Shown: piece by piece, positions 9,783-46,889 of the stretch
How positions within the stretch are numbered: position 1 is the first letter of the stretch
Layout: each line of letters opens with the position of its first letter
Assembly (NCBI RefSeq): GCF_055900595.2
Contig: NZ_CM148325.1
DNA: 64,000 nucleotides
Direction: 5' to 3' (one strand)
Made by a program: the position numbers and the translations under genes
The notes under the pieces: model-generated
What the model was told of the DNA's origin: nothing
Databases searched by the model: none
What the model saw: only the letters and a program-made list of their open reading frames with translations

Positions 9783-10208
9783 TTGTTTGTGCGTGTTTTC
9801 TTCATACATGATTGGTAGTAAAGGTGATTCAGGCTATCAGTTTTTGCTGATGATCTTTTTATCTATAGAAAACATCAGCCAAGCTGGTTGGTTCAGTAAC
9901 GCTTTCATCTTTGAGCATTTTATAAAAAATTCTTGAATTGTTAAAATAGATTAAAGTCTGGTAACAGCAAAAGTTAAACGAGAAATCAAAAGGAGGTCCC
10001 AAATCTGAAAATGAAGCATCTGCGTGATGATGTTGCAGCGGGACGTCGTCGGCTGTATATCAGAGCAATCTGTCCATCCCTGCGTGAAGCCCCGTTACTT
10101 TATTCGTACCCCTTATAATGGGGTGTTAGCCAGCCAGACCCGGCATGATTACTGTGAACCGCCCCGGGAATCCTGGAGACTAAATTCCCTGAGAAAGAGG
10201 TAAACAGG

Positions 10209-10535
10209 ATGACTAAAAATACACGTTTTTCCCCCGAAGTCCGTCAACGGGCAGTTCGTATGGTTCTGGAAAGTCAGGACGAATATGACTCACAATGGGC
10301 GGCAATTTGTTCCATAGCTCCAAAGATTGGCTGTACGCCAGAGACTCTGCGTGTCTGGGTTCGCCAGCATGAGCGGGATACCGGGGGCGGTGATGGTGGG
10401 CTCACCACCGCTGAACGTCAGCGTCTGAAAGAGCTGGAACGTGAAAATCGTGAACTGCGCCGCAGTAACGATATCCTTCGCCAGGCTTCCGCTTATTTTG
10501 CGAAGGCGGAGTTCGACCGCCTCTGGAAAAAATAA
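10209..10535 (+). CDS. IS629 OrfA (108 aa)
   Basis: [23 protein letters not shown]... matches recalled IS629/IS1203 OrfA. Confidence 0.9.
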
Positions 10536-11335
10536 TGCCACTGCTGGATAAGCTGCGTGAGCAGTACGGGGTCGGACCGGTATGCAGTGAACAGCATATT
10601 GCCCCGTCAACGTATTACCATTGTCAGCAGCAGCGGCATCATCCTGATAAACGCAGTGCCCGTTGTCAGCGCGATGACTGGCTGAAGAGAGAGATACAGC
10701 GCGTATACGATGAAAATCATCAGGTGTACGGTGTGCGTAAAGTCTGGCGTCAGTTGTTACGGGAAGGAATCAGGGTGGCCAGATGTACAGTGGCGCGCCT
10801 CATGGCGGTTATGGGACTTGCCGGTGTTCTCCGGGGTAAAAAGGTCCGCACTACCGTCAGCCGGAAAACCGTTGCTGCAGGTGACCGCGTAAACCGTCAG
10901 TTCGTGGCAGAACGTCCTGACCAGCTGTGGGTGGCTGATTTTACTTACGTCAGCACATGGCAGGGCTTCGTCTATGTGGCGTTCATCATTGATGTGTTTG
11001 CCGGATACATCGTGGGGTGGTGGGTCTCATCGTCTATGGAAACGACATTCGTGCTGGATGCGCTGGAGCAGGCGTTGTGGGCCCGCCGTCCGTCCGGCAC
11101 CATCCATCACAGCGATAAAGGCTCTCAGTATGTGTCACTGGCCTATATGGAGCGATTAAAAGAAGCAAAACTGCTGGCATCAACAGGGAGTACAGGCGAC
11201 TCGTATGACAACGCGATGGCGGAGAGCATCAATGGTCTTTACAAAGCGGAGGTAATACACCGTAAGAGCTGGAAAAACCGTGCAGAAGTGGAACTGGCCA
11301 CACTCACGTGGGTGGACTGGTATAACAATCGATGA
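10535..11335 (+). CDS. IS629 OrfB transposase, shortened by a premature stop (266 aa versus about 296)
   Basis: Ends ...TWVDWYNNR then TGA; the expected C-terminus (LLGRLGHTPPAEAEKAYYASIGN) is readable just after the stop. Confidence 0.8.
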   Translation: MPLLDKLREQYGVGPVCSEQHIAPSTYYHCQQQRHHPDKRSARCQRDDWLKREIQRVYDENHQVYGVRKVWRQLLREGIRVARCTVARLMAVMGLAGVLRGKKVRTTVSRKTVAAGDRVNRQFVAERPDQLWVADFTYVSTWQGFVYVAFIIDVFAGYIVGWWVSSSMETTFVLDALEQALWARRPSGTIHHSDKGSQYVSLAYMERLKEAKLLASTGSTGDSYDNAMAESINGLYKAEVIHRKSWKNRAEVELATLTWVDWYNNR

Positions 11336-11985
11336 TTGCTGGGAAGGCTGGGCCATACTCCTCCGGCAGAAGCAGAAAAAGCTTATTATGCTTCCATCGG
11401 AAACAATGATCTGGCAGCCTGAGTTCACAGATAAAACACTCTCCAGGAAACCCGGGGAGGTTCAGTAATATCTGATCGTAACGGACGGACGCTGGAATTA
11501 ACCGATGACCGCAGCACAGAGAGTAGGGGATGCGGACGGTCAAAGATCGTGGAGTTGGATTTTATAAATCTGTCTCCAGTAGTAGATGAACTGAATACAA
11601 AGTTGCCAGAGAGTGGTCTGTCAGGCAGGGAATCAGAAACCGGATATTATTGACTGGTACATTGTGTCGGGCTGTGTACGTTCTCCCCGGACAGACAGTC
11701 TCAGTTCGTAGAATCTATAAATTACTGCTACTGATGCTGCCGGGGAAAGGTGTAACGAAAAAGCAGCCTCCGTTACCGGACAGCAAGAAGGCTGAATGAA
11801 GTTTATGGCGTTTGTATTTTGTAATGTCTGGCCATGCAGTAAATCCAGACAGGTTTTTATTATCATGTGAAGTATTCTGACATAAAATACTAAATTTCTA
11901 TTTTGTGATGAATGCTGCAAAATTGAATCTGCACTCTGATGTAACTTTTATCTGTTTCAGTGAAGCATGCCCACAGATTGAGTTA

Positions 11986-13686: not shown

Positions 13687-13741
13687 GGTGATGCTGCCAA
13701 CTTACTGATTTAGTGTATGATGGTGTTTTTGAGGTGCTCCA

Positions 13742-14017
13742 GTGGCTTCTGTTTCTATCAGCTGTCCCTCCTGTTCAGCTACTGACGGGGTGGTGCGTAA
13801 CGGCAAAAGCACCGCCGGACATCAGCGCTATCTCTGCTCTCACTGCCGTAAAACATGGCAACTGCAGTTCACTTACACCGCTTCTCAACCCGGTACGCAC
13901 CAGAAAATCATTGATATGGCCATGAATGGCGTTGGATGCCGGGCAACAGCCCGCATTATGGGCGTTGGCCTCAACACGATTTTACGTCACTTAAAAAACT
14001 CAGGCCGCAGTCGGTAA
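13742..14017 (+). CDS. insA: IS1 InsA
   Basis: 91 aa [30 protein letters not shown]... Confidence 0.9.
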
Positions 14018-14439
14018 CCTCGCGCATACAGCCGGGCAGTGACGTCATCGTCTGCGCGGAAATGGGCGAACAGTGGGGCTATGTCGGGGCTAAATCGCGC
14101 CAGCGCTGGCTGTTTTACGCGTATGACAGGCTCCGGAAGACGGTTGTTGCGCACGTATTCGGTGAACGCACGATGGCGACGCTGGGGCGTCTTATGAGCC
14201 TGCTGTCACCCTTTGACGTGGTGATATGGATGACGGATGGCTGGCCGCTGTATGAATCCCGCCTGAAGGGAAAGCTGCACGTAATCAGCAAGCGATATAC
14301 GCAGCGAATTGAGCGGCATAACCTGAATCTGAGGCAGCACCTGGCACGGCTGGGACGGAAGTCGCTGTCGTTCTCAAAATCGGTGGAGCTGCATGACAAA
14401 GTCATCGGGCATTATCTGAACATAAAACACTATCAATAA
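13936..14439 (+). CDS. insB: IS1 InsB (made as InsAB' by frameshift)
   Basis: 167-aa track ORF overlapping insA in the -1 frame. Confidence 0.9.
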
Positions 14440-14710
14440 GTTGGAGTCATTACCTACAACGTTTATCGACCTCACACGAACAACGATGGTTTACCGCCTT
14501 GCTTACATGAAGAAAAGTGGAAACAGGTTATTCCGGTGTCCTGATTTTGTGAACCACTACAATAATCCTTTTTCACAGACTTGTCAGCAGCCAGCATTTA
14601 TGTTCTTTTACCTGCGGGAATTTATCCGTCTGCCTGTCGGGACTACTCTGTCATACAGAAATCAGGTAGGAATAAATTGTAGTGGAAAGTCGATGTTTAC
14701 CGGATGACTG

Positions 14711-15262
14711 ATGCGCGCTTGTACACAGACAGTGTGTTTCAGTAATATGGAGAATAATGAAATGAATAACACAGACACATTAGAAAAAATAATCAGACAC
14801 CAAAAAAACAAAGACCCCGCATATCCCTTTCGGGAACATTTGTTGATGCAGCTCTGTATTCGCACAAATAAAAGAATGCAGGATAATATATCTGAATTTC
14901 TGGGGGTGTATGGAATAAATCACTCAGCATATATGGTTCTCACCACATTATTCGCAGCGGAGAACCATTGTCTGTCACCTTCAGAGATAAGCCAGAAACT
15001 TCAGTTTACCAGAACTAATATTACCCGCATTACAGATTTTTTAGAAAAAGCCGGATATGTAAAAAGGACGGATAGCAGGGAGGATCGCCGTGCTAAAAAA
15101 ATCAGTCTGACATCTGAAGGTATGTTTTTTATTCAGAGGCTCACTCTTGCACAAAGCATGTATCTGAAAGAAATCTGGGATTATCTGACCCATGATGAAC
15201 AGGAACTGTTTGAAGTCATTAATAAAAAGTTACTGGCACATTTTTCTGATGCCAGCTCATAA
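14711..15262 (+). CDS. papX: MarR-family regulator PapX/SfaX-like (183 aa by track; start may be the internal MENNEMNN)
   Basis: MarR-type wHTH; sequence ...TDTLEKIIRHQKNKDPAYPFREHLLMQLCIRTNKR... matches recalled PapX; sits where the 3' end of a pap operon would be. Confidence 0.75.
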   Translation: MRACTQTVCFSNMENNEMNNTDTLEKIIRHQKNKDPAYPFREHLLMQLCIRTNKRMQDNISEFLGVYGINHSAYMVLTTLFAAENHCLSPSEISQKLQFTRTNITRITDFLEKAGYVKRTDSREDRRAKKISLTSEGMFFIQRLTLAQSMYLKEIWDYLTHDEQELFEVINKKLLAHFSDASS

Positions 15263-15728
15263 AGTGCGAAATATCTGAGGATGCTGGATAGCTTCAGGCA
15301 AGAGAATAATGATTCTTGCAGATGTGTTTTTCCGGATACAAAAACAAAAGTAAAAAATTGCAGCGCCAGGCCACCTTTCAAAGCAGGGAGGCCTGTACCG
15401 CGTCGAAAATTTCAGCCAGTTAATGTAATTGTCTGAACCAGGCACTTCGCCCGGGCAGGAGAAGGAGCGTGGTTGCGGTCATCCTGTATACTGAAGTCGT
15501 TATGAAGGAATAATACAAATAATTGCCCGTTTTCTCTGTACGATAGAGGCAGGTGTGTATGATTGCATTACTATGTTTTTGTGATATAAAAAACTAAATG
15601 GTGAGATATGCATTTTAAAATATAACAAAAATCACCATGAAATAAGAATAATTATCCACGGAGAACATAAACTGCAGACTGTTACAATGCATGCTGTTCA
15701 TCTTGACAATGTCGGTAATGACTCCAAC

Positions 15729-16232
15729 TTATTGATAGTGTTTTATGTTCAGATAATGCCCGATGACTTTGTCATGCAGCTCCACCGATTTTGAGAACGA
15801 CAGCGACTTCCGTCCCAGCCGTGCCAGGTGCTGCCTCAGATTCAGGTTATGCCGCTCAATTCGCTGCGTATATCGCTTGCTGATTACGTGCAGCTTTCCC
15901 TTCAGGCGGGATTCATACAGCGGCCAGCCATCCGTCATCCATATCACCACGTCAAAGGGTGACAGCAGGCTCATAAGACGCCCCAGCGTCGCCATCGTGC
16001 GTTCACCGAATACGTGCGCAACAACCGTCTTCCGGAGCCTGTCATACGCGTAAAACAGCCAGCGCTGGCGCGATTTAGCCCCGACATAGCCCCACTGTTC
16101 GCCCATTTCCGCGCAGACGATGACGTCACTGCCCGGCTGTATGCGCGAGGTTACCGACTGCGGCCTGAGTTTTTTAAGTGACGTAAAATCGTGTTGAGGC
16201 CAACGCCCATAATGCGGGCTGTTGCCCGGCAT
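15729..16232 (-). CDS. insB: IS1 InsB (copy B)
   Basis: Identical to copy A InsB. Confidence 0.9.
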
Positions 16233-16426
16233 CCAACGCCATTCATGGCCATATCAATGATTTTCTGGTGCGTACCGGGTTGAGAAGCGGTGTAAGTGAA
16301 CTGCAGTTGCCATGTTTTACGGCAGTGAGAGCAGAGATAGCGCTGATGTCCGGCGGTGCTTTTGCCGTTACGCACCACCCCGTCAGTAGCTGAACAGGAG
16401 GGACAGCTGATAGAAACAGAAGCCAC
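16151..16426 (-). CDS. insA: IS1 InsA (copy B)
   Basis: Identical to copy A InsA. Confidence 0.9.
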
Positions 16427-16955
16427 TGGAGCACCTCAAAAACACCATCATACACTAAATCAGTAAGTTGGCAGCATCACCCAATCTGCTGACAGACGAA
16501 GATAATGAACCCGTTATGGTTTTTAACGGAGAGAGGAATGTACTGGCAGACAGTCTGAAACCACAGCCTCTGATTCTTCCGGTCAAGGGAAAATAAGCGT
16601 AATGTTCATCACCAGATTATGTACGATGAGTTTTCCACTGTTTATAGCAATTATCTTGCTAATAACCAGACAGGAGTAACCAGACCAACCGAAAACACCG
16701 GGAAGGTGATTACCCGCTGGCAGAGGAAATCCGGTTTTTTTTGATGTCAGCCATAACGTGTTTGACAATAAAGCATCATGAAAGGGTGTTAATGAGTCCA
16801 TGGGATAATTCATAAAAATAATTTACTGTGTTATCCTTTTCAAAAGAAATATTCAGAAGATAACCCCTGGCTGACAACCAGGGGAAGGGGGCATTAACAG
16901 TGTTATTATTGGTGAATAAATTATTACTTGTGTGCAGGATACACTAATGCAATAT

Positions 16956-18029
16956 CTACTGATACTGTATGCCAGTATGTTTCATGCCTGCCGCTGAAAA
17001 CGGCAATATCCAGGGCCAGATATATTCACCATTCATATTTCTGCATTTCTGTACAATTTTCTCAGAAAGCGTCTCATCAATTCTTTCACGCAACTTCTCC
17101 TGCTGTCTTAAAATACTTTCGCATATTTCGAAATCATCTTCCTGCATCAGCATTTCGGCGCATTTAATGATTTCTGCCCGTTCATGCAGCACAGAGGAAT
17201 GATTATAGAGCCAGTTTACAAACAGCAATGCTTCCGGATATTGCCCCCATAACGGGTGGTATGTGGCATAATAATCTTCGGCAGTATCCGGACCGCCTGA
17301 AAAGTTATGCCATACAGCAAGTGGAAATGGATGCAGATTTCCGCACAGTATTTCTGCGATGTAAGTATTTGCCGCAAAGCCGCGACGAAATGCAGTTGCA
17401 GCTTTTACCAGTTCCCCATTAAGAAAATGCAGAAGGCCGAGTTCATACCAGTAAGGTGAAAATTCATCTGCATGTTCCTGCAGTATATGGCGTGCCTGTT
17501 CATGAGCGCCAGTGCGTAACAGTTCCGGTCCCAGTAGCCAGCGTGCACCATGATTATCTTCGGGATTGTAATCCAGTATTTTTTCAATGAGCATGATGGC
17601 ATCCTGATGACGCTGTAAATGTGCATTTGCCAGGATTGCCGCATAGAGGGCACGAAGAAAAGGTCGGTTGTCAGGATGTATCCAGATGATTCTGCCACTG
17701 AAACCTTCAGGGATAAGACGATTGCCAATTGCCAGCCCTTTAAGGGCAGCATTCAGCGCCTTACGCGGGGCATTCTGCTCCAGAAATACGTATGCCAAGT
17801 GAGCGTGTACATCAATAAAGTCATTCTCCTGTCGGGCAAGGCGCCTGAGTTTGTTGATGTAACTTGTTTCGCTGATTTCATCCGCATCGTATGCATCAAT
17901 CAGTTCTTCAAACTCATCCAGCAACGAGCCAAACCAGGTTTCCGGAAATATGAAACAGCCCTGGTTATCGTTCACTTCAAAGCGTAATTTGCCAGTCATA
18001 TTCTGAACCTGTAAAAAAGGATGGACCAT
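16956..18029 (-). CDS. Hypothetical protein with TPR-like helical repeats (357 aa by track; alternative start at 17999)
   Basis: Long ORF with repeated amphipathic helix pairs (...ALNAALKGLAIGNRL..., ...LRALYAAILANAHLQRHQDAIMLIEKILDYNPED...); I do not recognise the family. Confidence 0.6.
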   Translation of the reverse strand: MVHPFLQVQNMTGKLRFEVNDNQGCFIFPETWFGSLLDEFEELIDAYDADEISETSYINKLRRLARQENDFIDVHAHLAYVFLEQNAPRKALNAALKGLAIGNRLIPEGFSGRIIWIHPDNRPFLRALYAAILANAHLQRHQDAIMLIEKILDYNPEDNHGARWLLGPELLRTGAHEQARHILQEHADEFSPYWYELGLLHFLNGELVKAATAFRRGFAANTYIAEILCGNLHPFPLAVWHNFSGGPDTAEDYYATYHPLWGQYPEALLFVNWLYNHSSVLHERAEIIKCAEMLMQEDDFEICESILRQQEKLRERIDETLSEKIVQKCRNMNGEYIWPWILPFSAAGMKHTGIQYQ

Positions 18030-18254
18030 AACCTGCAGGCTATAAAAATTGTGATGCCTGGCATCGGTGTCCTTTTATTGTCCGGGATTAACGTTGCCCA
18101 TGATAATACAGTGAATTCTGTTCTGTGGTAAGACGTTGAGTTATTGAATGAGAACCTCAGCCTGGCTGATGGTTCCGCCGGCATAAAAAAGAAATTGATT
18201 GAGGCGGGTGCTCTTCCCCTTAAGAGGAAGAGCATGTGTGTAAATGGCGTTCAG

Positions 18255-19520
18255 TCACCTTTTCAGTGGATTGTTAACTTTTGCATATTCAAACGGACTG
18301 ATACACTCCTCCCTGTTTGCATCCAGAAAATCTGCCCACCATTGCAGCATAAGCCGACGTTCTTCCAGATGTTCTGCTTTATGAATATACGCGGCACGTA
18401 CTCCGTTGCGCTCCTGATGACTCATCTGACGTTCAACCGCATCTCTTGACCATAAGCCGGATTCAATCAATGCACTGCACGCCATCGCCCGGAATCCATG
18501 GCCACAGACTTCCTTGGTTGTGTCATACCCCATCACTCTGAGGGCCTTATTTACGGTATTTTCACTGATTGGTTTACGTGGGTCGTGTGCTCCCGTAAAG
18601 ATCAGACCATTTTCACCTGCCCATGTCTGAAGTTCTGCCAGTATGGCTACAGCCTGTTGGCTGAGTGGCACAAGATGTGGTGTTCGCATCTTGGAGCCCC
18701 GGTATGAAAATTTTACGCCTGGCAGAGGTTCGCGTTCGGCTGGAATAGTCCACATGGCATTGTCAATATCAATTTCAGACCAGCGGGCATATCTGAGTTC
18801 ACTGGAACGAATAAAAACCAGTAAATTCAGCATAACTGCCAGTCGGGTGACAGGCTGGCCTTTATAACCGTCAATACGCGACAGAAGTTCAGGCAGGCGT
18901 GAAAGATCCAGAGCAGGGCGATGCTGGCGTTTTACCGTGGTCAATGCACCAGCCATATCCAGAGCCGGGTTATATCTGATGATGCCAGACTGTACGGCAT
19001 AACGCATTACAGCAGATATTCTTTGCTGCAGACGACTGGCGATTTCATAAATTTGTTTAACTTCTGCAGCACGAACAGGGATAAGCAGATCCGGGGTACT
19101 GAGTGTTGTGATATCCCGGTTGCCGATAAAGGGGAAAACGTGAGTCTCGAGGCTTTTGAGTACTTTATCGCTGTGTGATTGTGCCCATTGTTTATTACTG
19201 GCATGCCAGCGTCGTGCAATATGTTCAAAAGAGAGCTGTAAATCAGGGACTACTTTTTTAGCTCTTTTCTGTTCGCAAGGGTCAACCCCCTCCGAAATCA
19301 GTTTTCGGGCCTCATCCCGTTTTGTACGAGCTTCGGAGAGAGAAACTTCCGGATACACACCAAGTGCCAGGGTTTTCTCCTTACCCAGAATACGATAACG
19401 GAGACGCCAGTAACGGGAACCATTAGGATGTACCAGCAGGAACATGCCAGCCCCGTCAGTGAGTTTATAAGCCTTGTCAGTGGGCTTTGCAGCCCGGATT
19501 TTTGCGTCAGTCAGTGCCAT
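18255..19520 (-). CDS. P4-family tyrosine integrase (421 aa)
   Basis: N-terminus MALTDAKIRAAKPTDKAYKLTDGAGMFLLVHPNGSRYWRLRYRILGKEK typical of P4/CP4-type integrases; C-terminal catalytic region present. Confidence 0.9.
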   Translation of the reverse strand: MALTDAKIRAAKPTDKAYKLTDGAGMFLLVHPNGSRYWRLRYRILGKEKTLALGVYPEVSLSEARTKRDEARKLISEGVDPCEQKRAKKVVPDLQLSFEHIARRWHASNKQWAQSHSDKVLKSLETHVFPFIGNRDITTLSTPDLLIPVRAAEVKQIYEIASRLQQRISAVMRYAVQSGIIRYNPALDMAGALTTVKRQHRPALDLSRLPELLSRIDGYKGQPVTRLAVMLNLLVFIRSSELRYARWSEIDIDNAMWTIPAEREPLPGVKFSYRGSKMRTPHLVPLSQQAVAILAELQTWAGENGLIFTGAHDPRKPISENTVNKALRVMGYDTTKEVCGHGFRAMACSALIESGLWSRDAVERQMSHQERNGVRAAYIHKAEHLEERRLMLQWWADFLDANREECISPFEYAKVNNPLKR

Positions 19521-19680
19521 AGTTCAGCCTTCTGAATGCGTTAAAGAGGGTACAAATTCTGTCGAACTGGGGTATACCCGCAATTATACCCACACAATGG
19601 GGTTGATGTGGGGGGAATCTGGTTGAGTTCGGTAGAATTGATTTGGAGGCAGAACGCTTAAATTGTGGCGTTCTGAAACG

Positions 19681-19708
19681 AAAAACGGACCTCCGTGGAG
19701 GTCCGTTT
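19681..19708. terminator. Strong hairpin terminator between the tRNA-Phe remnant and the integrase
   Basis: aaaaacggacctcc gtgg aggtccgttt: 11-12 bp perfect stem with T-runs on both sides. Confidence 0.6.
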
Positions 19709-19717
19709 ATATGAATT

Positions 19718-19736
19718 TGGTGCCCGGACTCGGAAT
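19718..19736 (-). repeat. 19-bp copy of the tRNA-Phe 3' end (attachment-site core repeat); no full tRNA
   Basis: Minus strand reads ATTCCGAGTCCGGGCACCA, identical to the 3' end of tRNA-Phe (pheV/pheU, recalled); upstream sequence does not continue as tRNA. Confidence 0.6.
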
Positions 19737-19983
19737 GAAACTGGTTATATAACCAATTGTTTTGTATCGACTGTTTTGTCTTTGTTCTTTTTGGGGCCAC
19801 CAATGAGGCCCCCATGTGCAATTCGAATTCTTTTGACGCTATAATCCCTCTTTTTTGTGCTTTGTTGTAATCATTTTGTCTGGTTCGATATGCTGAATCG
19901 CGGAATCGAAGTAACAACAAAATACAGAGATTTATAAAATACCTGGCTACCTGTGTTAGGGAGCGTTAACGCACAGATTTTGT

Positions 19984-20310
19984 TTATGGCTGCCAGAAAT
20001 GATCTGATGGTTTGTCGTCTGGCTCTGCAAGTACCCTGTTGATATCCCGGGAACCATGAACGATACGTTCGATACGAACTTCAGTATCCAGTACCCTGAA
20101 CAGCAGAAGGTAACGACCATACGAACAACCTCTGATCCCTGCCCCTAACTCGGGTCTTTCTCTGTAGAGTACTGGCGATTCGGCTATCAACAGACATTGT
20201 TGGTAAAGCTCTTCGGTAAAACTGATTGCACGGACAGGATTATCCTGAGCGATCCAGTCACCTATAGCTTCAAGATCGTGTTCTGCTAATGGTGAAACAG
20301 TCAGTTTCAT
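19984..20310 (-). CDS. ParE/RelE-superfamily toxin (108 aa)
   Basis: Small basic protein immediately downstream of, and overlapping by 4 bp, a ParD-like antitoxin gene; ParE-like sequence by recall. Confidence 0.75.
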   Translation of the reverse strand: MKLTVSPLAEHDLEAIGDWIAQDNPVRAISFTEELYQQCLLIAESPVLYRERPELGAGIRGCSYGRYLLLFRVLDTEVRIERIVHGSRDINRVLAEPDDKPSDHFWQP

Positions 20311-20570
20311 ATTGGCTGTTCACCTTCTGCCATCTTTTTGTATTTGTGCGTCAGTCGCCCGAATACCTCTTCAGCACTTTTACTTTCACCGCTGTTGATG
20401 CCTGCGGTAACGGCGCTCTGGAGTGATTCAAGCTTTATCTGCTGTTCCCGTTCTTCCAGAGCACGAAGTCCGGCACGAATGACTTCACTTGTATTGTTAT
20501 ACCGACCACTTTCTATTTGTTCGCGGATAAACGTTTCAAAGTAAGGACTGAGGGATACACTGGTAGGCAT
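20307..20570 (-). CDS. ParD-family antitoxin (87 aa, RHH fold)
   Basis: MPTSVSLSPYFETFIREQIESGRYNNTSEVIRAGLRALEEREQQ is a typical ParD N-terminus. Confidence 0.75.
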   Translation of the reverse strand: MPTSVSLSPYFETFIREQIESGRYNNTSEVIRAGLRALEEREQQIKLESLQSAVTAGINSGESKSAEEVFGRLTHKYKKMAEGEQPI

Positions 20571-20641: not shown

Positions 20642-21508
20642 TTATGCCTTGCGGCTTTTGTTCACTGTGCTTGCCAGGGCTTCCGGGTAGTGTCTGACAA
20701 TAATATCATTAAGCCTGTCAACCAGTTCTGGTTTCCTGAACGTGATGTGCGCGGAGCCCTTCTTAAAGTATCTGATGCTGAACATCTCATCTTCATAGTC
20801 CTCTTTACCCTGAACAGACCGGATGTGCTCATTCAGATGAATGGTGATGTTTTCCCGGTTGTCGGGGATCGGTTTGCCGCTGAACAGATACAGCATTCTT
20901 TCCAGGTCGGCAAGTCGATCTGCCTGTTGCCCGGTGATAAGATGAAACCCCCACCGGTCCCACCTCACCAGGTTGTTGACGATAATTTTACTGCCAAATT
21001 TACAGGGTGAATTGTTTTCGTAATTCCAGCTCAGTCCCCTGAAAACATTGATCACCCCACGCTCAAACACTTCATCTTTGTTCTGGTGCAGTTGTTCAAA
21101 TGTGCTCAGAATGTTCGCTTCACTGATTTCCGGAAAATTATCGTATTCCAGTGACCGGTACCATGTATCACGGGCCTGCGCATCCATTAATGACAGCATC
21201 CCGGAACGTTGCATCAGGTCACGCCAGATTTCGCGATCGAGATTGCGGGTGATGGCTTTCATTGCTGTTTCCGGTTTATCCATGAGCCAGCATCCGCAGC
21301 GAAAATCCTGTTTCATCGCCCAGTCCCGTGCGCTTTTACCACCAATGCTTTTTGTCAGTACTGAGATTTCAGTCAGTTGCCGGATAAGCGTTTCGGTTTG
21401 TTGCAGTGCTGCATTCCGTACCGTCACAACGTGTCGGATACTGGTGGAGCAGATAACGTCCGTATTCCCGGTGACCACTTCCGGATGGGAGATTGTGATG
21501 TTTGACAT
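20642..21508 (-). CDS. Hypothetical protein, 288 aa (possibly DUF4942-type, common at the ends of CP4-like islands)
   Basis: Track ORF with coding-like composition; family assignment from memory only. Confidence 0.6.
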   Translation of the reverse strand: MSNITISHPEVVTGNTDVICSTSIRHVVTVRNAALQQTETLIRQLTEISVLTKSIGGKSARDWAMKQDFRCGCWLMDKPETAMKAITRNLDREIWRDLMQRSGMLSLMDAQARDTWYRSLEYDNFPEISEANILSTFEQLHQNKDEVFERGVINVFRGLSWNYENNSPCKFGSKIIVNNLVRWDRWGFHLITGQQADRLADLERMLYLFSGKPIPDNRENITIHLNEHIRSVQGKEDYEDEMFSIRYFKKGSAHITFRKPELVDRLNDIIVRHYPEALASTVNKSRKA

Positions 21509-21592
21509 TATCGGTTTCCCTTTTGGTTTATAAACGAAAACGCCAGCCGTATTCAGGCTGGCGTCAGTGGAATGAAGTCTGGTGAGTAAGGC

Positions 21593-21790
21593 TCACCGGT
21601 TCTGTTGCAGAAGCTGCAGTTGGCGCAGGGTATGGATATCCTCCCTCGCCTGTTCAATGCAGGGCAGCAGTGCTGCCGAATCCGTTTTATCCTCATCGTT
21701 GTCAAAGATAATTCCCGATTCGCAGTCGATATTGTCCTGCAGCCACGCAATCAGAATATCCAGTGCTGTTTCCGTGGTTAATGATTTCAT
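21593..21790 (-). CDS. YeeW-like small protein
   Basis: MKSLTTETALDILIAWLQDNIDCESGIIFDNDEDK... resembles YeeW/YpjJ-type proteins that follow cbtA-type toxin genes (recall). Confidence 0.55.
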   Translation of the reverse strand: MKSLTTETALDILIAWLQDNIDCESGIIFDNDEDKTDSAALLPCIEQAREDIHTLRQLQLLQQNR

Positions 21791-21801
21791 GTTGTTCCTG
21801 G

Positions 21802-22290
21802 TTACCAGTTGAAAGTGGGTAAACCCGGCAGGCATTCAGCGCTGGCATCCAGATGAATGAGACTGACGCCATAACGTCGGGTAAGTGTGACAACCAGACA
21901 ACGGAACGTTTTTGACAGGCCCAGGCGCTTAAGCCGCAGAACCGGGTATGACCACGCATCGGTACGTAACAGATAGCCGCTACCTGTGAAATGAATCCAT
22001 TCTGATTCACCAACGTCACTGGTCTGATGCGACAGCGAGTACAGCCAGGCGTTATCCTTTTCCGTGATATGTGCGGTACTGCAGCGTATGCCGGCAAGGG
22101 TTGCAAACGGTGGTAGTGTGCAGGTTGACTGTTGGTCGGATTCCTCCACCACGCGGAGTGAATAACCGTTTTCAGCGACCTTGTTAATCAGTTCAGTGAG
22201 ATTAACACCATCGACGTCAACGACAATTTGCCCCATGTTCAGTGCCTGCACATTAATTCTGTCGGCTTCCAGCATCAGGGAAAGTTTCAT
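21802..22290 (-). CDS. Hypothetical protein, 162 aa, start overlapping the cbtA-like stop
   Basis: Track ORF; 4-bp overlap with the upstream toxin gene suggests translational coupling; family not recognised. Confidence 0.45.
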
Positions 22291-22661
22291 CGTTTCTCCG
22301 GATGCTTACCCAGGGTAATGTTATTTACCGTTCTGTAATTGTCGCGGGTCATCAGGCCGGTCGCCCGGCGAGCCCGGAGGATATCAATACTGTTTATTAA
22401 CTGAGAGCGGGGACAAGTGCTGAATCCCGGCTGGTCGGTACGCACCAGCGCGTATTTTTCCACGAGAAAATTCACCGCATCACACAGTGAAATGCCAGCT
22501 TCAATATGCTGCTCAATCACACGTTCATCGGCGAACGGTGTGTCATTCAGTGTAAGGCCGTAATGCTGGCCCAGTAGTCGGGAGAGCAGAGTCTGCCAGA
22601 TGGTGACGGGAGACGGGCAGCTCGATGCCTCCCGTACGTGTGTATCGGGTAATGTTTTCAT
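22287..22661 (-). CDS. CbtA/YeeV/YkfI/YpjF-family type IV toxin (124 aa)
   Basis: ...[45 protein letters not shown]...[10 protein letters not shown] matches the recalled family. Confidence 0.85.
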
Positions 22662-22750
22662 ACTGAAGGTTTTCCTGATATGCAGAGATGAAAAATGGAA
22701 AAGTGGCGTGGTGAAAGCACCAGGCCGGAGCAGAAGGTTATTCCGGTGGT

Positions 22751-23119
22751 TTACTTTTTCGTTTCGGGCGTCGGATAAACAGCCAGATAAACGTAACCAC
22801 AGGAGCCGAGGGTGTCGGCTTCGCAGGTCAGCCCTTTCGCATACAGCGTGACGGTATGCTGATGTCGGGGATTCAGTTCACCGCTGGTGAGCATGAGTTC
22901 CAGTTGTTTCATCAGCAGCGGAAAGGCCTGGTCCAGATGGTATGCATCTGCGTCGCTGAAGCGGCCTCTGATACCGGCGCGGTCGGCAAGGTAATGCAGG
23001 CGGTTACCCTCCTGCACCAGACGGGCGCCAAAACAGGGCCTCACTGTGCAGGGAAGCCCCCACCAGGGGCGGTCGTGATTGTCGTCGGGATGAGTTATCC
23101 CGGAGAGTGTGTCTGACAC
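22751..23119 (-). CDS. CbeA/YeeU/YfjZ-family antitoxin (122 aa)
   Basis: [80 protein letters not shown] matches recalled YeeU. Confidence 0.85.
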
Positions 23120-23159
23120 GATAAAATCCTCTCTGAAAAGTGGTTAAGAATGGTTTAAC

Positions 23160-23801
23160 GATGACAGGTCAGCCGGTGCGCTGACCGGTTTCGGTGAAGA
23201 TGTATGCATTGATGAGAATGGCCTCATCCACAGCGGCGTCTGAGGTCATCTGGTCGTACTCGTTTTCCAGTTGACGGTACAGCCAGAAGGCCAGGTCGCG
23301 CAGGGCTTCGCTGACAGCGGCTTCCGCATCGGCTGTCATAGCCTGACCAGTCGGACTGTTCCGGGTAACAGTGATAACGGATGGCAGTAACGTCCCCGGT
23401 GGTGGATTTCAGCCTGCAGTTGCCAGAAGTTACGTTTCTGCACCGCCTGCAGGGCATCCGCGATACGATGAAGCTCACGGTTCTGCGGGGCATACTCCCG
23501 GACTCTCCTGGTTGTTGCTGACTGCCAGTGCCAGCGTCCTTCAAAACAGGCTCCGTCCCTGGCTGCAGAATCCGCTGAACCAGATGCACGGCTCTTCCAT
23601 AAACCTGCCGTTGCTGAGACGGATAACACGCTGGCAGAGGTCAATTCCGAAAATGCCACAGACCTCCCTGACGTCCTCATACACGTTTTCATACCAGTTG
23701 CTGTCAGCATGATGCTGACGGTACCCGTCGCGGGCTTTTTCCCGTGCCGGGCAGGAAAGTTCATCCAGCGTATACACTGTGATGGTGATAATTCTGCTCA
23801 T
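23160..23801 (-). pseudogene. Frameshifted gene between yeeT-like and cbeA-like genes (product unknown)
   Basis: Three overlapping track ORFs in three frames (23541..23801, 23336..23764, 23224..23589) plus a readable C-terminal peptide (...AVSEALRDLAFWLYRQLENEYDQMTSDAAVDEAILINAY...) point to one roughly 210-aa gene broken by frameshifts. Confidence 0.45.
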
Positions 23802-34485: not shown

Positions 34486-34858
34486 TGGCTCAGCGTATGC
34501 GCCATTTGCTTACATATGGGCTTAAACCCTAAGGGGCACCAGGCTGCATACGCTTTGCCAAATCTGTTCGCTGCTCATGATAACGAAGAACCAGGATACA
34601 AGGTGGAAGATCCTCAACGCTCAGGGGCGCAATGTTCCCTGTGTTTCATGCCCCCATCGTTTGTTGCTGTGGTGCCAGACTTCTGAGGCACCTCCATGTC
34701 GTTTTGCTTTTGTCAGCATCATAAATGCGTCGGGACTGGTGAATGGATACAAGTCATTTTATTATCGACGTCAGCGAACATACTCACTATGTCGGTATAT
34801 TTCTGAACTGAACAGTAAGTTTTGCGTTGATTACAGTATGCGAAGGAGGTCCATTACA

Positions 34859-36463
34859 ATGAATCCCGATTATGTGCAATCCTTGCAGACATCCCACCAC
34901 TTCCCAGCTGATTTAACCTACAGATTATTTCCTAGTGAGCTTGCGTATCTCATTGACGACTTATATGAAAGTACCCAACTTCCGTTGGAGCTCATTTTTA
35001 ATACTGTACTGGCAACGCTCTCACTCTCCTGTCAGTCATTGGTTGACGTTGTTCATCCTCACACCAACATGCCGGAACCCTGCTCACTTTATCTGTTGGC
35101 AATCGCAGAGCCAGGCGCGGGAAAAACAACGATAAACAGACTGGTGATGAACCCCTGTTACGAATTTGCCGATCGACTCATTCAACAATACGAAGAGAGA
35201 AACAAAGATTATAAGACTGAACTACAGATCTGGAATACCCGGCAGAAAGCGCTTGCTGCCAATTTAAGAAAGGTTGTTAACCGGGGGTATCCGGGGGAAC
35301 AGGAAGAAGAGGCGCTGCGTAATCACGAAAGAAATAAACCGACACGTCCGGTTCGACCGAATTTTATCTATGAAGATGTTTCGCTTAAAGCGCTTGTGGA
35401 AGGGCTCAATGAACATCCTGAGGCAGGGGTTATTTCTGATGAGGCGGTCACTTTTTTCAGAAGCTATCTGAAAAATTATCCGGGCCTGTTGAATAAAGCA
35501 TGGAGTGGGCAACCGTTTGATTTTGGACGGGCTGACGAGAAATACCATATCGCGCCACGTCTGACATTTTCGTTAATGTCTCAGCCGGATGTCTTTACGA
35601 ATTATATAAATAAAAATGACGTACTGGCGTGGGGAAGCGGATTTCTTTCCCGGTTTCTGTTCAGTCAGGTTGTAAGTTCTTCCTGGATACGTGATTATAC
35701 GAGAGGTGAGTTCAGAACAATATCAACCCTGGAGAACTTTCATAAAAAGATTAACGGATTCCTGTTAAACCACAACATTAATTTCCCCGGCATGAGCACC
35801 GAAAGGAAGACATTAAAACTTGCGAAGAAAGCGTTGGGGGAGTGGCAGGAAAACCAGATTAAGATTGAAAGAAAAGCGCTTGCAGGCGGGGAGTGGGAAC
35901 ACATCAGAGATATTGTTCTGAAAGCAGGCTCTAATATACTGAGGATAGCTGGAATATTCACCTGCTATTGCTATAAAGATGCTGAGGAAATTGAATCAAT
36001 TACGCTTTTTAAAGCTATGCATCTCATGGACTGGTATCTGGAGGAGGCGAGCACAATATTTTATCCCATGTCTGCACGATGCCAGTTTGAACAGGATGCC
36101 TGTGAACTGTATGCATGGATTATGACCCGAATAAGGCAGAATAATTGGCGTGCTATCAGGAAAACAGACATTGAAAGATATGGTCCCAATCGACTGAGAA
36201 GAGCAGAAAAACTTACACCTGTACTCAATCAGTTAATCTGTCAGGGGTATTTATGTATCATCAGAATGCGATCGCATCAGGCACTTTATGTTTCTGTTTA
36301 TTGTAACAATGGTTACCTCCTTCCTTTAGGCGCAATGTATTACGAACAGTTTGATATTGTTCTACCCGAGAATATTCATAAAGCGAAAGCATATCACGTT
36401 AATATTCCACCGGAATTAATTCCGTCATTTGCGTCACCTTTTTCAGAGTATAGCTTATTTTGA
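34859..36463 (+). CDS. DUF3987-type P-loop protein (YfjI-like, primase-associated family), about 534 aa
   Basis: Track ORF 34577..36463 trimmed to MNPDYV with strong RBS aaggaggt; Walker A-like AEPGAGKTT. Confidence 0.65.
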   Translation: MNPDYVQSLQTSHHFPADLTYRLFPSELAYLIDDLYESTQLPLELIFNTVLATLSLSCQSLVDVVHPHTNMPEPCSLYLLAIAEPGAGKTTINRLVMNPCYEFADRLIQQYEERNKDYKTELQIWNTRQKALAANLRKVVNRGYPGEQEEEALRNHERNKPTRPVRPNFIYEDVSLKALVEGLNEHPEAGVISDEAVTFFRSYLKNYPGLLNKAWSGQPFDFGRADEKYHIAPRLTFSLMSQPDVFTNYINKNDVLAWGSGFLSRFLFSQVVSSSWIRDYTRGEFRTISTLENFHKKINGFLLNHNINFPGMSTERKTLKLAKKALGEWQENQIKIERKALAGGEWEHIRDIVLKAGSNILRIAGIFTCYCYKDAEEIESITLFKAMHLMDWYLEEASTIFYPMSARCQFEQDACELYAWIMTRIRQNNWRAIRKTDIERYGPNRLRRAEKLTPVLNQLICQGYLCIIRMRSHQALYVSVYCNNGYLLPLGAMYYEQFDIVLPENIHKAKAYHVNIPPELIPSFASPFSEYSLF

Positions 36464-41633: not shown

Positions 41634-42653
41634 TCAGCAGCTTTCACGTAAACATAAACAGGGCTCAATGAATATCTGATTGCTCCAGTTACCTTCTTTA
41701 ATTCGTTCCAGCAAAACATTTCCTGCTTCCAGACCAATTTTCCTGTGAGGAACGGCCATTGTTGTTAATGATGGTTGGCAAACTTTGCTGACGTCACTGT
41801 CACCAAATCCTACTACGGCGAGCTCGTCTGGAACTTTGATCCGTCTTCGTTGACATTCATAGAGAACACCGCAGGCTAACTCATCTGACACACATACCAG
41901 GGCATCCAGTTCCGGCCATGCGAGCAAAAATTCCGGTAGTTGTGATGCTCCGGTGGAAAAAACAGGTGGCAGAGCAGCGTTAATAACACGGTTGGGAGAC
42001 ATATGATGGCGTAACATAGCTTTATACCATCCCTGTAAATGCTGCTGAAAGATCCACTGTTCCTGGTTAGCGCATAGCAAACCGATATTCTGATAACCAC
42101 GTTGTACCAGCATATCCGTCAGCTCGAACATTGCTGCAACATTATCAATACCAATGTTGATATCTATCGGATCAGTACGAATGGCACCGATTTCTATAAC
42201 AGGAATCGAGGCATTTTTGAGCAAGTGACGCACGGTACTATTATGCTCAACACTAAGCAAAATTGCTGCAGCGATATTAGAAGCCAGCAGGGTTTCCAGC
42301 AGTTTTTCTTCTTGTTCCAGACGATGGCGTGACTCAGCCAGGATTATTTGATACCCCGCTGGTTGTAGCACATGTTGCAGCCCGGCAAACATTTCCGTGC
42401 ATCCCGCTTCAGCCAGGTTTGGCACGACCATTGCGATCGTGTGTGAAGATGCCGATGCCAGTGCGCTTGCAGTGAGGTTGGGCATATACCCTAATTCATT
42501 AACTGCGGCTTCAATCTTCTCCCTCAATTTATCTGAAACTTGTTCGGGAGTGCGTAACGCTCTGGATACAGTCATTGTGCCAACTCCCGCGAGTTGCGCG
42601 ACATCAGCAATAGTGACTTTACCTGTACTACGACGTTTTCGGGTTATTGCCAT
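41634..42653 (-). CDS. LacI-family transcriptional repressor (339 aa)
   Basis: N-terminal HTH (VTIADVAQLAGVGTMTVSRALR) plus periplasmic-binding-protein-like sugar-binding domain; divergent from the PTS operon. Confidence 0.85.
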   Translation of the reverse strand: MAITRKRRSTGKVTIADVAQLAGVGTMTVSRALRTPEQVSDKLREKIEAAVNELGYMPNLTASALASASSHTIAMVVPNLAEAGCTEMFAGLQHVLQPAGYQIILAESRHRLEQEEKLLETLLASNIAAAILLSVEHNSTVRHLLKNASIPVIEIGAIRTDPIDINIGIDNVAAMFELTDMLVQRGYQNIGLLCANQEQWIFQQHLQGWYKAMLRHHMSPNRVINAALPPVFSTGASQLPEFLLAWPELDALVCVSDELACGVLYECQRRRIKVPDELAVVGFGDSDVSKVCQPSLTTMAVPHRKIGLEAGNVLLERIKEGNWSNQIFIEPCLCLRESC

Positions 42654-43721: not shown

Positions 43722-45116
43722 GTGGATATGTTTATCCTTGAAACGCTGAATTTTGTTGTTGATATACTTAAAGTGCCCGCGATACTGGTCGGCTTGATTG
43801 CCTTAATTGGTCTGGTTGCCCAGAAAAAATCTTTTTCAGATGTTGTTAAAGGTACAATTAAAACTATTCTCGGCTTTATTGTACTGGGCGGTGGTGCCAC
43901 TGTTTTGGTTGGTTCGTTAAATCCTCTTGGGAGTATGTTTGAACATGCCTTTAATATTCAGGGCATCATTCCGAATAATGAGGCTATTGTTTCTATTGCG
44001 CTGGAAAAATATGGCGCATCGACGGCCCTTATTATGGCATTTGGTATGGTGGCGAATATTATTGTTGCCCGCTTTACCCGCCTTAAATATATCTTCCTGA
44101 CCGGACACCACACATTTTACATGGCCTGCATGATTGGTGTGATTCTGACAGTGGCTGGTTTTGAAGGTATATCACTGGTCTTTACCGGTTCTCTTATTCT
44201 GGGACTTGTGATGGCATTTTTCCCGGCATTAGCACAACGCTATATGAAGCGTATTACGGGGAATGATGACATTGCTTTTGGTCACTTTGGCACTCTGGGA
44301 TATGTACTTTCTGGCTGGATTGGCAGCGTGTGCGGTAAAGGTTCCCGCTCCACCGAAGAGATGAATTTGCCCAAAAATCTGAGCTTCCTGCGCGACAGTT
44401 CCATCTCTATTTCTCTTACGATGATGGTGATTTATCTGATCATGGCGATCAGTGCTGGTCGTGAGTTCGTTGAAAGCCAGTTCAGTGGTGGTCAAAACTA
44501 CCTTGTCTACGCCATCATAATGGCCATCACCTTCGCTGCTGGTGTATTTATTATTCTGCAAGGCGTGCGTTTAATCCTTGCTGAAATAGTTCCGGCATTT
44601 ACCGGGTTTTCAGAAAAGCTGGTGCCGAATGCCCGTCCGGCCCTCGATTGCCCGGTTGTGTATCCGTATGCGCCAAACGCAGTGTTAGTTGGTTTCTTGT
44701 TTAGCTTTTTTGGCGGTCTGGTAGGGCTATTTTTGTTGGGACAGATGAAACTGGTGTTGATTCTTCCGGGTGTCGTTCCTCACTTTTTTACCGGGGCGGC
44801 TGCTGGCGTATTTGGTAACGCTACGGGGGGACGTCGTGGCGCAATGATTGGTGCTTTTGCGAATGGCTTATTGATTACCTTCCTGCCAGTACTGTTATTG
44901 CCGGTTCTTGGGGCGATAGGCTTTGCTAATACGACCTTTTCCGATGCAGATTTTGGTGCTGTCGGCATCGTCCTCGGAAACCTGGCACGTTATCTCTCAC
45001 CTTTTGCCATCACCGGACTTGTAGTAGCGCTATTTGTGCTGCTGGTTGCCTGGAACATTTTCGCCAGTAACAAAATCGCTGCCAAAGCGCAGAAGAAGAG
45101 TGGAGCCAAATCATGA
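43722..45116 (+). CDS. PTS EIIC permease (UlaA/SgaT-like), 464 aa
   Basis: Large polytopic membrane protein directly after EIIB. Confidence 0.85.
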   Translation: MDMFILETLNFVVDILKVPAILVGLIALIGLVAQKKSFSDVVKGTIKTILGFIVLGGGATVLVGSLNPLGSMFEHAFNIQGIIPNNEAIVSIALEKYGASTALIMAFGMVANIIVARFTRLKYIFLTGHHTFYMACMIGVILTVAGFEGISLVFTGSLILGLVMAFFPALAQRYMKRITGNDDIAFGHFGTLGYVLSGWIGSVCGKGSRSTEEMNLPKNLSFLRDSSISISLTMMVIYLIMAISAGREFVESQFSGGQNYLVYAIIMAITFAAGVFIILQGVRLILAEIVPAFTGFSEKLVPNARPALDCPVVYPYAPNAVLVGFLFSFFGGLVGLFLLGQMKLVLILPGVVPHFFTGAAAGVFGNATGGRRGAMIGAFANGLLITFLPVLLLPVLGAIGFANTTFSDADFGAVGIVLGNLARYLSPFAITGLVVALFVLLVAWNIFASNKIAAKAQKKSGAKS

Positions 45117-45943
45117 ATGTTAAAGAATTGACTCAATTTGCACGGGATATACGTATCCAGACGCTTAAATCATTAACTCATCTCGGCTTCGGTCATTATG
45201 GTGGCAGCATGTCGGTTGTGGAAACGCTGGCAGTGCTTTATGGCGCTGTAATGAAAATTGATCCTGCTGCTCCCGACTGGCCTGAGCGTGACTATTTTAT
45301 CCTGTCCAAAGGACATGCCGGACCTGCTCTCTACAGTACTCTGGCGCTGAAAGGCTACTTTCCACTGGAAGAATTAAGCACCTTAAATCAGAACGGAACC
45401 CGCTTACCAAGTCATCCGGATCGGCTAAAAACGTGTGGTGTTGATAGCACCACAGGATCGCTGGGGCAGGGGATATCCATTGCCGGAGGGATGGCGCTGT
45501 CGCATAAACTGGCGGGGCGCAAGAATCGGGTTTTTTGTATTGTCGGCGATGGCGAACTTAATGAAGGCCAATGTTGGGAAGCTTTCCAGTTTATCGCGCA
45601 TCATCGTTTGAATAACCTCACTGTGTTTGTGGACTGGAACAAACAGCAGCTTGATGGTCAACTGGATGAAATTATTAATCCATTTGATTTGGAAGGAAAA
45701 TTCCGGGCTTTCGGTTTTGATGTCGTGACAGTGAAGGGCGATGATATTGAGGGCTTGTTGAATGTAGTTAAACCTGTCCTGCCAGCTGAGGCCAGACCGA
45801 GAGTGGTCATTCTCGATAGCATTAAAGGGCAGGGGGTGCCGTGTCTCGAGCAACTCAGTAATTCTCATCACTTACGCCTCACAGAAGAGATGAAGGGGAC
45901 GCTAAACGAAACAATTCGCCAACTGGAGGCTATGCATGATTAA
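45113..45943 (+). CDS. Transketolase, N-terminal subunit (split tkt)
   Basis: Thiamine-diphosphate-binding signature (...GHYGGSMS..., ...GDGELNEGQCWEA...); overlaps neighbours by 4 and 8 bp. Confidence 0.85.
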   Translation: MNVKELTQFARDIRIQTLKSLTHLGFGHYGGSMSVVETLAVLYGAVMKIDPAAPDWPERDYFILSKGHAGPALYSTLALKGYFPLEELSTLNQNGTRLPSHPDRLKTCGVDSTTGSLGQGISIAGGMALSHKLAGRKNRVFCIVGDGELNEGQCWEAFQFIAHHRLNNLTVFVDWNKQQLDGQLDEIINPFDLEGKFRAFGFDVVTVKGDDIEGLLNVVKPVLPAEARPRVVILDSIKGQGVPCLEQLSNSHHLRLTEEMKGTLNETIRQLEAMHD

Positions 45944-46889
45944 TCTCGCACCGGCAGGACAAAAAGACAGCATTGAAATGCGCAAAGTTTATGCAGATTT
46001 TATCGCGCAACAGAGTAAAAACGTCAGTTCTGTCATTGCTCTTGAGGCTGATTTAATGAGTTCCATGGCAATGGACAGCGTGGCGCAGGATTATCCAGAT
46101 CACGTCATTAATTGCGGCATTATGGAAGCCAATGTTATCGGCACAGCTGCAGGGCTGGCCTTAACCGGGCGCAAGCCATTCGTGCATACCTTTACCGCAT
46201 TTGCCAGTCGTCGCTGTTTTGATCAACTCTTTATGTCGCTTGATTACCAGGGCGCTAACGTCAAAGTTATAGCTTCTGATGCGGGTGTTGCTGCTTGCCA
46301 CAATGGCGGAACACATATGTCATTTGAAGATATGGGAATTGTGCGCGGGCTGGCGCATTCGGTGGTGATGGAGATGACAGATGCCGTAATGTTCAGCGAT
46401 ATCTTGCGTCAACTCGTTGCACTGGAAGGATTTTATTGGATTCGTACCATTCGGAAGCAAGCAGCGAGTATTTACGCACCAGGTACAACCTTTACAATTG
46501 GCAAAGGGCAGGTATTACGTGAAGGTACGGATGTCACCTTAATTGCTAATGGCATTATGGTGGTGGAAGCCCTGGAGGCCGCACGTCAACTTGAGCTGGC
46601 TGGGGTAAGTGTAGCGGTGATTGATATGTTTACGCTCAAACCCGTTGATCGGATGTTAATTAAAAATTATGCCGAAAAAACAGGACGGATCGTAACATGT
46701 GAAAACCATAGTATTCATAATGGATTAGGTTCAGCAGTTGCTGAAGTGCTTGTAGAAACTTGTCCTGTGCCCATGCGTCGGGTGGGGGTTAAAGAGCGGT
46801 ATGGCCAGGTTGGAACTCAGGACTTTTTACAGAGAGAGTACGGGTTAACCGCGCAAGATATTGTGGCGGCAGCCAGAGAGCTATTGTAA
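45936..46889 (+). CDS. Transketolase, C-terminal subunit (split tkt)
   Basis: Pyrimidine-binding and C-terminal transketolase domains; last gene of the operon. Confidence 0.85.
   Translation: MINLAPAGQKDSIEMRKVYADFIAQQSKNVSSVIALEADLMSSMAMDSVAQDYPDHVINCGIMEANVIGTAAGLALTGRKPFVHTFTAFASRRCFDQLFMSLDYQGANVKVIASDAGVAACHNGGTHMSFEDMGIVRGLAHSVVMEMTDAVMFSDILRQLVALEGFYWIRTIRKQAASIYAPGTTFTIGKGQVLREGTDVTLIANGIMVVEALEAARQLELAGVSVAVIDMFTLKPVDRMLIKNYAEKTGRIVTCENHSIHNGLGSAVAEVLVETCPVPMRRVGVKERYGQVGTQDFLQREYGLTAQDIVAAARELL

Follow-up and report, generated by a model that had tools for sequence, protein, structure and literature searches.

A 19-bp tRNA-Phe fragment as the very probable internal junction of two tandem genomic islands

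Phage P4 uses a leucine tRNA gene as its integration target. For the genomic islands found at pheV, Nhu et al. (2024) introduced a classification by integrase allele (PMC11537424), in which CFT073, EC958, ABU83972 and other uropathogenic strains have islands of the intP4.1 type. These islands contain aerobactin genes together with pap genes or pap remnants, and end in a 19-bp imperfect terminal repeat with a T substitution (PMC11537424). In Islander, tandem arrays are made up of islands that each have their own integrase and their own tRNA fragment, and 125 such arrays were counted (PMC4383910). In Escherichia coli CC73, a papGII island was described as "integrated adjacent to a PAI ABU83972-pheV-like island" (Biggel et al. 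2020; PMC7686366). Tandem tRNA-Phe arrays, and the pheV arrangement in uropathogenic E. coli, are already published, and the locus described here represents no new element or mechanism.

We analysed a stretch of 64,000 nucleotides from contig NZ_CM148325.1 (the window), in which a P4-type integrase gene is preceded by the last 19 nt of a tRNA-Phe gene. Very probably, this site is where two tRNA-Phe-integrating islands of a tandem array meet; they are here called island 1 (tRNA-proximal) and island 2 (tRNA-distal). Such a junction would be the exact border between two virulence islands that are usually annotated as one large "pheV island", and the three repeats identified could support their separate or joint excision. 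The result is of use for island delimitation and for tracing the accumulation of virulence genes at tRNA-Phe in uropathogenic and avian-pathogenic E. coli.

The attachment core, the integrase and its arm

The 19-mer TGGTGCCCGGACTCGGAAT lies on the plus strand at 19718-19736, its single site in the 64-kb window, and its reverse complement ATTCCGAGTCCGGGCACCA corresponds to positions 58-76 of E. coli tRNA-Phe, the last 19 nt, which start midway in the T-loop and include the CCA end. The identity was checked against both K-12 genes, and the perfect copy of the tRNA-Phe 3' end that an earlier note on this DNA had placed in front of the integrase gene was borne out by an exact match to the 3' ends of pheV and pheU. 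Scattering of the 19-mer over many unrelated sites, a concern of the same note, was not seen in the window, where one copy was found even with up to 3 mismatches allowed (chance expectation 0.02). The site has no complete tRNA either, as had been claimed: over the 64-kb window ARAGORN found no tRNA genes, and Rfam at its gathering threshold found no tRNA. Read on the minus strand, the order is ParD and ParE genes, a 172-bp arm, the 19-bp core, a hairpin, the integrase gene and a TPR gene, so that the core (19718-19736, minus strand) would be a repeat common to both islands, the right end of one and the left end of the other.

The hits that Rfam returned at the gathering threshold were an STnc490 sRNA, two ALIL pseudoknots (IS3-family frameshift elements) and an AS-pc02 antisense RNA, located at 9870-9992, 10490-10606, 11657-11835 and 59647-59710, in or near IS-rich stretches.

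The integrase gene of the distal island (18255-19520, minus strand) is an intact ORF of 421 aa. Its product contains the Pfam domains Arm-DNA-bind_3 (PF13356; 2e-29), Phage_int_M (PF22022; 1.3e-26) and Phage_integrase (PF00589; 8e-17), and aligns with phage P4 Int at 55% identity over 410 aa (E = 1e-173), with the RSSELR, GHGFR and RAAYIH segments kept. The three-domain layout, the similarity to P4 Int over the full length and the catalytic motifs identify it as a P4-type tyrosine integrase, in agreement with the earlier reading of a P4-type gene on the minus strand. Compared with the integrase next to pheV in CFT073, 4 of 421 residues differ.

The match to CFT073 extends over both sides of this gene. 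From 19736 down to 16900 (2,837 nt), the window and CFT073 are 99.33% identical in a gapless alignment, which sets in at base 1 of the core, inside the intact pheV of CFT073, where the matched stretch has the order intact pheV 3' end, hairpin, integrase and TPR gene. The segment between the core and the integrase gene (19521-19717, minus strand) is the integrase-proximal arm (P' arm) of the distal island, with 99.3% identity to the sequence that follows pheV in CFT073, and the 160 nt on the integrase side of the core have no similarity to the native K-12 pheV flank. A complete tRNA-Phe gene with the same left-end arm was found in 5,225 of 5,426 complete E. coli genomes (coverage of at least 80%), K-12 among them.

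Within this arm, AAACGGACCTCC and GGAGGTCCGTTT form a G+C-rich hairpin at 19683-19708 (minus strand), which starts 9 nt after the core on the minus strand and is followed by the T-rich tail TTCGTTT; the inverted repeat is perfect (12/12). The predicted fold has an 11-bp stem and a 4-nt loop at -22.9 kcal/mol, with a z-score of -3.3 against shuffled sequences, and the terminator scan detected the same hairpin. The strong hairpin terminator that had been proposed beside the 19-mer is thus supported by both fold and scan, and at this site it belongs to an island arm with no tRNA in front of it. The native pheV terminator, AACCCGCCCACAAGGCGGGTTTTT, is unlike the island hairpin; in the CSF isolate MS15046 it stands at the distal end of the array. 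Behind K-12 pheU there are 133 bp of the left-end arm, the same hairpin included, at 92.5% identity. Because the same arm and hairpin follow complete tRNA-Phe genes, K-12 pheU included, the hairpin is, as judged from the sequence, island-borne and not chromosomal, and replaces the tRNA-Phe gene's own terminator when an island integrates at the tRNA. The "native" pheU terminator of K-12 is itself island-derived, as part of the 133-bp attachment arm, after which the yjdQ integrase fragment follows (L007 2192-2627).

Two decamers 12 bp apart, TATACCCGCA and TATACCCACA, lie at 19573-19594, in the stretch that separates the core from the integrase start. In phage P4, the annotated tandem arm repeats, GATGCCCCCAAT and TATGCCCCCAAT, have the same relative position, and because position and pairing are alike, the decamers may by analogy be candidate arm-type integrase binding sites. 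The decamer is not over-represented in the window, so only its position and pairing are suggestive.

The ParDE-side arm and the tandem array

With all sites oriented in the direction of the tRNA, the sequence on the other side of the core (19737-19908, minus strand) is 91.9% identical over 172 bp to the arm before the terminal repeat of the MS15046 aerobactin island, and has no similarity to tRNA-Phe or to its upstream flank. It can be read as the distal arm (P arm) of the tRNA-proximal island, which contains the CP4-like/yee module and ParDE. Going by the two arm comparisons, the junction is a hybrid of the right-end arm of island 1, the 19-bp core and the left-end arm of island 2, because the CFT073 homology begins at base 1 of the core and the opposite arm is a right-end island arm. 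This arm-core-arm order is the layout of a complete phage-type attachment site in the chromosome. The earlier note had suggested that a second element integrated into the same tRNA and left a partial attachment site behind, and had pointed to known attachment sites for comparison; the CFT073 pheV left end (99.33%), the MS15046 right-end arm (92%) and the breakpoint at the core all fit such a tandem integration.

The same arm bears on another explanation, that the 19-mer is a stump left over from a tRNA-Phe gene after an unrelated insertion or deletion destroyed its 5' part. A window with no tRNA gene would agree with such a loss, but the neighbour of the 19-mer is a conserved island arm (92% over 172 bp) and not an IS end or random DNA, and the breakpoint is at tRNA position 58, as in the terminal repeats of pheV islands (Table 1, PMC11537424). 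We consider a stump extremely improbable, and the arm comparison effectively refutes it.

A TTG-initiated ORF of 137 aa (19507-19920, minus strand) runs across the attachment site. It is probably spurious, since it spans both of the unrelated arms and the annotation of MS15046 shows no feature under the junction match.

The last genes of island 1 are a parD-parE toxin-antitoxin pair (19984-20570, minus strand), assigned from NCBIfam and from the RefSeq annotation of matching genomes. In NCBIfam, the ParD antitoxin reached 96.9 bits (cut-off 46.2) and the RelE/StbE-type toxin 24.3 bits, which is under the cut-off of 27.9. The cargo of island 1 in the window further includes the CP4-like backbone and, in the region 39000-64000, a LacI-type regulator (41634-42653), an ascorbate-type PTS IIC gene (43722-45116), a transketolase split over two genes (45113-46889) and a large autotransporter of 1371 aa (53616-57731). 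The same region contains IS21 and IS66 elements and a YadA-like adhesin fragment (60064-60981). Neither a pap operon nor ireA was found within the window. The ORF at 34577-36463 was tried as ireA and rejected, as tblastn with MS15046 IreA finds nothing in the window; it is a DUF3987/helicase-like backbone gene. None of the complete E. coli genomes in the collection is collinear with 39-64 kb of the window (best coverage 55%), and only 3 cover at least 80% of 15-40 kb; the far end of island 1 was therefore studied in relatives.

In the mechanism that we propose, the P4-type integrases of both islands would recombine within the tRNA-Phe 3' end. Each integration would rebuild the tRNA from the island-borne copy of its last ~19 nt, and would move the displaced ~19-nt segment out to the island's other end. 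If one tRNA-Phe gene serves two islands, the displaced copy of the proximal island would double as the left-end core of the distal island. Island 1, which would supply the right-end arm, would correspond to the CP4-like/yee module with ParDE, and island 2, which would supply the left-end arm, would bring the hairpin, the CFT073-type integrase, the TPR gene, the pap remnant and the aerobactin genes. The layout agrees with that given in the earlier note, which had placed integrase, TPR gene, pap remnant and aerobactin on the older side and the CP4-like module opposite. No second integrase was found within the window, and related genomes suggest that the complete tRNA gene would lie beyond its right end. 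We infer that the junction arose by site-specific recombination and that, given the three repeats, either island, or both together, could still excise.

The junction in related genomes and the order of arrival

The junction of arm, core and this left-end arm was found in 377 of 5,426 complete E. coli genomes, and 201 complete E. coli genomes have it with ParDE and full integrase flanks (window 18000-20400), a segment over which the closest junction genomes are 99.8-99.9% identical to the window. An intact tRNA-Phe gene with an adjacent integrase, which the earlier note had proposed to look for elsewhere in the genome, was found in two related genomes, in both cases in the same orientation as the fragment; the window itself stops short of a tRNA. 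In MS15046, which is 99.9% identical over 18000-20400 and matches at 2,981 of 2,981 positions over 16737-19717, the array starts with yqgA, pheV, a 396-aa integrase, a TPR gene, the papG-II operon, ireA, the CP4-like/yee module and ParDE. The 19/19 repeat comes 62.7 kb from the intact pheV and is followed by the 421-aa integrase and its TPR gene, and then by the rest of island 2 (pap remnant, iucABCD-iutA, sat, iha, Ag43 and a second yee module). The far-end repeat ATTCCGATTCCGGGCACCA (18/19) is ~74.9 kb past the 19/19 repeat, outside the window; directly after it the native K-12 pheV flank resumes (48/48 nt, including its own terminator), ahead of the kps capsule genes. In MS8345 the junction is at pheU, and the intact pheU with its own integrase is 51.4 kb away. 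There, dicD is followed by pheU, the 396-aa integrase and a ~51 kb island whose last genes are ParDE; beyond the 19/19 repeat come the 421-aa integrase and a TPR gene, and then papX, IS elements and cadB. PKF11 and IR53017 were followed for ~50 kb, and the tRNA was not reached.

Each of the two islands can therefore be given its own integrase and its own tRNA fragment. The distal island has the gene at 18255-19520 and, in MS15046, the 18/19 repeat. To the proximal island belong the 19/19 fragment of the window and the 396-aa tRNA-adjacent integrase seen in MS15046 and MS8345. The end of the array at the native tRNA flank is seen in MS15046 (48/48 nt of K-12 pheV). For the window's own strain, the array is complete by analogy with these other genomes only.

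The two integrases of MS15046 (421 aa and 396 aa) share only 42% identity, while the TPR genes behind the two integrases (TPR-like gene at 16956-18029, minus strand, in the window; island-1 gene of MS15046 at L002 9760-10803) share 86% identity at the protein level. This difference fits the mosaic, modular make-up reported for pheV islands. The TPR gene of the window had no match in PADLOC or PHROGs.

The pheV gene of MS15046 (L002 7887-7961; NZ_CP082103.1 3356386-3356460) is 75 nt long and reads TCCGGCACCA versus TCCGGGCACCA, with a G missing from the acceptor stem. This 1-nt deletion was considered as an attachment feature of island 1 and rejected, as the other listed genomes align over 702 nt versus 701 nt in MS15046, and it appears to be specific to the MS15046 assembly or strain. 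The same "GG-C" variant is the terminal repeat of several other pheV island types (Table 1, PMC11537424). The deletion may be an assembly error, or left-end and right-end repeats may have exchanged sequence, with a defective tRNA gene as the result.

An inverted IS1 pair (13687-14458 and 15710-16481) flanks the papX segment of the window (13687-16481). Its orientation agrees with that in MS8345 and is the reverse of that in MS15046, which points to an IS1-mediated inversion.

On the integrase side, the window stays 99.8-100% identical to MS15046, MS8345 and PKF11. Against MS15046 there are 0 mismatches over 17000-19750 and ~1% up to ~20.6 kb, and from ~20.7 kb on the mismatch is 5-19%, inside the DUF4942/yee module. 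Over 20650-23200 (DUF4942, yee cbtA/cbeA), the identity to MS15046, MS8345 and PKF11 falls from ~99% to 81-95%. A break in identity to MS15046 had been expected at the core and was found ~1 kb inside island 1 instead, so the divergence says nothing about the time at which the junction formed. The course of identity marks the ~20.7-kb break as a recombination boundary within island 1 and not as an attachment site, and because the drop is ~1 kb inside island 1 and not at the core, homologous recombination has reshuffled the inner part of island 1.

The block of ParDE, core, integrase 2 and TPR gene is 99.8-100% identical at pheV (MS15046) and at pheU (MS8345), and may have reached this lineage in one piece, by descent or by transfer, instead of arising in it. 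A junction imported ready-made, by integrase-mediated or homologous recombination between pheV/pheU islands or as a composite element that moved between the two genes, would suit both this identity and the 5-19% difference in the interior of island 1 from ~20.7 kb on, and a movement of the pap island between pheU and pheV within CC95 has been proposed (PMC7686366). Such an import covers the spread of the junction, but its first origin still needs a tandem integration or an equivalent att x att event, and for this strain the same data fit both import and local integration. We regard the ready-made import as possible, though tentative. The block is also kept at 99% or more in about 200 genomes, at pheV or pheU. 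It could be thought of as a functional unit and not a scar, in which the islands excise or move together or separately, ParDE stabilises the array and the hairpin shields the integrase from read-through, and to us this seems quite improbable.

Under tandem integration, the order of arrival is unreadable from the junction, because both orders give an identical sequence. It is plausible, by inference, that the aerobactin island is older and island 1 the second to arrive, and two observations speak indirectly for this order. First, the 5 nt upstream of the T-loop are ACCAG in the arm versus CTTGG in the tRNA, and given the paired core sites of tyrosine integrases, a displaced repeat whose tRNA-side half is missing would be a poorer target. 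Second, STEC313 has a ParDE-ended island that separates pheU from a decayed integrase remnant, which lies beside cadC and is shared with K-12; because the island sits between pheU and this shared remnant, the tRNA-proximal element of STEC313 is the later arrival. In the reverse order, the CP4-like/ParDE island would be older and the aerobactin island would have come second, into the displaced 19-bp repeat. By the layout of the attachment sites the final sequence would be equal, and both island types occur alone in other genomes (PMC11537424), but the poorer target and the newer tRNA-proximal element of STEC313 speak against this order, and we consider it unlikely.

Comparison with known systems

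The closest relatives of island 2 are the intP4.1 islands at pheV (PAI I CFT073, EC958_GI-pheV and the ABU83972 pheV island). The integrase allele is the same type (99.3% DNA identity to CFT073; 4 of 421 residues different), and the arm, the hairpin and the TPR gene are also 99.3% identical. A pap remnant and iuc genes are present in the island of the window as well. In MS15046, the far-end repeat TTTCATTCCGATTCCGGGCACCA has the published T substitution, and the island measures ~74.9 kb, compared with 74,987 bp in ABU83972 (PMC11537424). Unlike in these islands, where the integrase lies directly downstream of an intact pheV, in the window a 19-bp fragment precedes the integrase: the island is off the tRNA, with a bare 19-bp left-end core, and another island lies between.

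Phage P4 resembles the locus in its Int (55% identical, with the same three-domain layout), in an integrase gene that adjoins the core, and in a pair of short repeats, spaced 12 bp apart, in the interval from this gene to the core. However, the core sequence of P4 attP differs from the tRNA-Phe core of the window, and the element in the window is a large non-phage island, with none of the P4 genes for replication and helper exploitation seen in the window.

The remnant at K-12 pheU contains yjdQ, a pseudogene which is the 3' end of an integrase gene behind pheU. It has the same left-end arm with the hairpin (133 bp, 92-93% identical), but its integrase is cut down to a fragment with ~66% DNA identity, and its tRNA is complete.

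The tandem arrays of Islander and the papGII array of CC73 share the arrangement found here, with two islands per tRNA, an integrase and a tRNA fragment for each island, and co-oriented repeats; moreover, island 1 of MS15046 has papG-II, like the CC73 array. The cargo of island 1 in the window differs from theirs, while in kind nothing separates the array proposed here from these described arrays.
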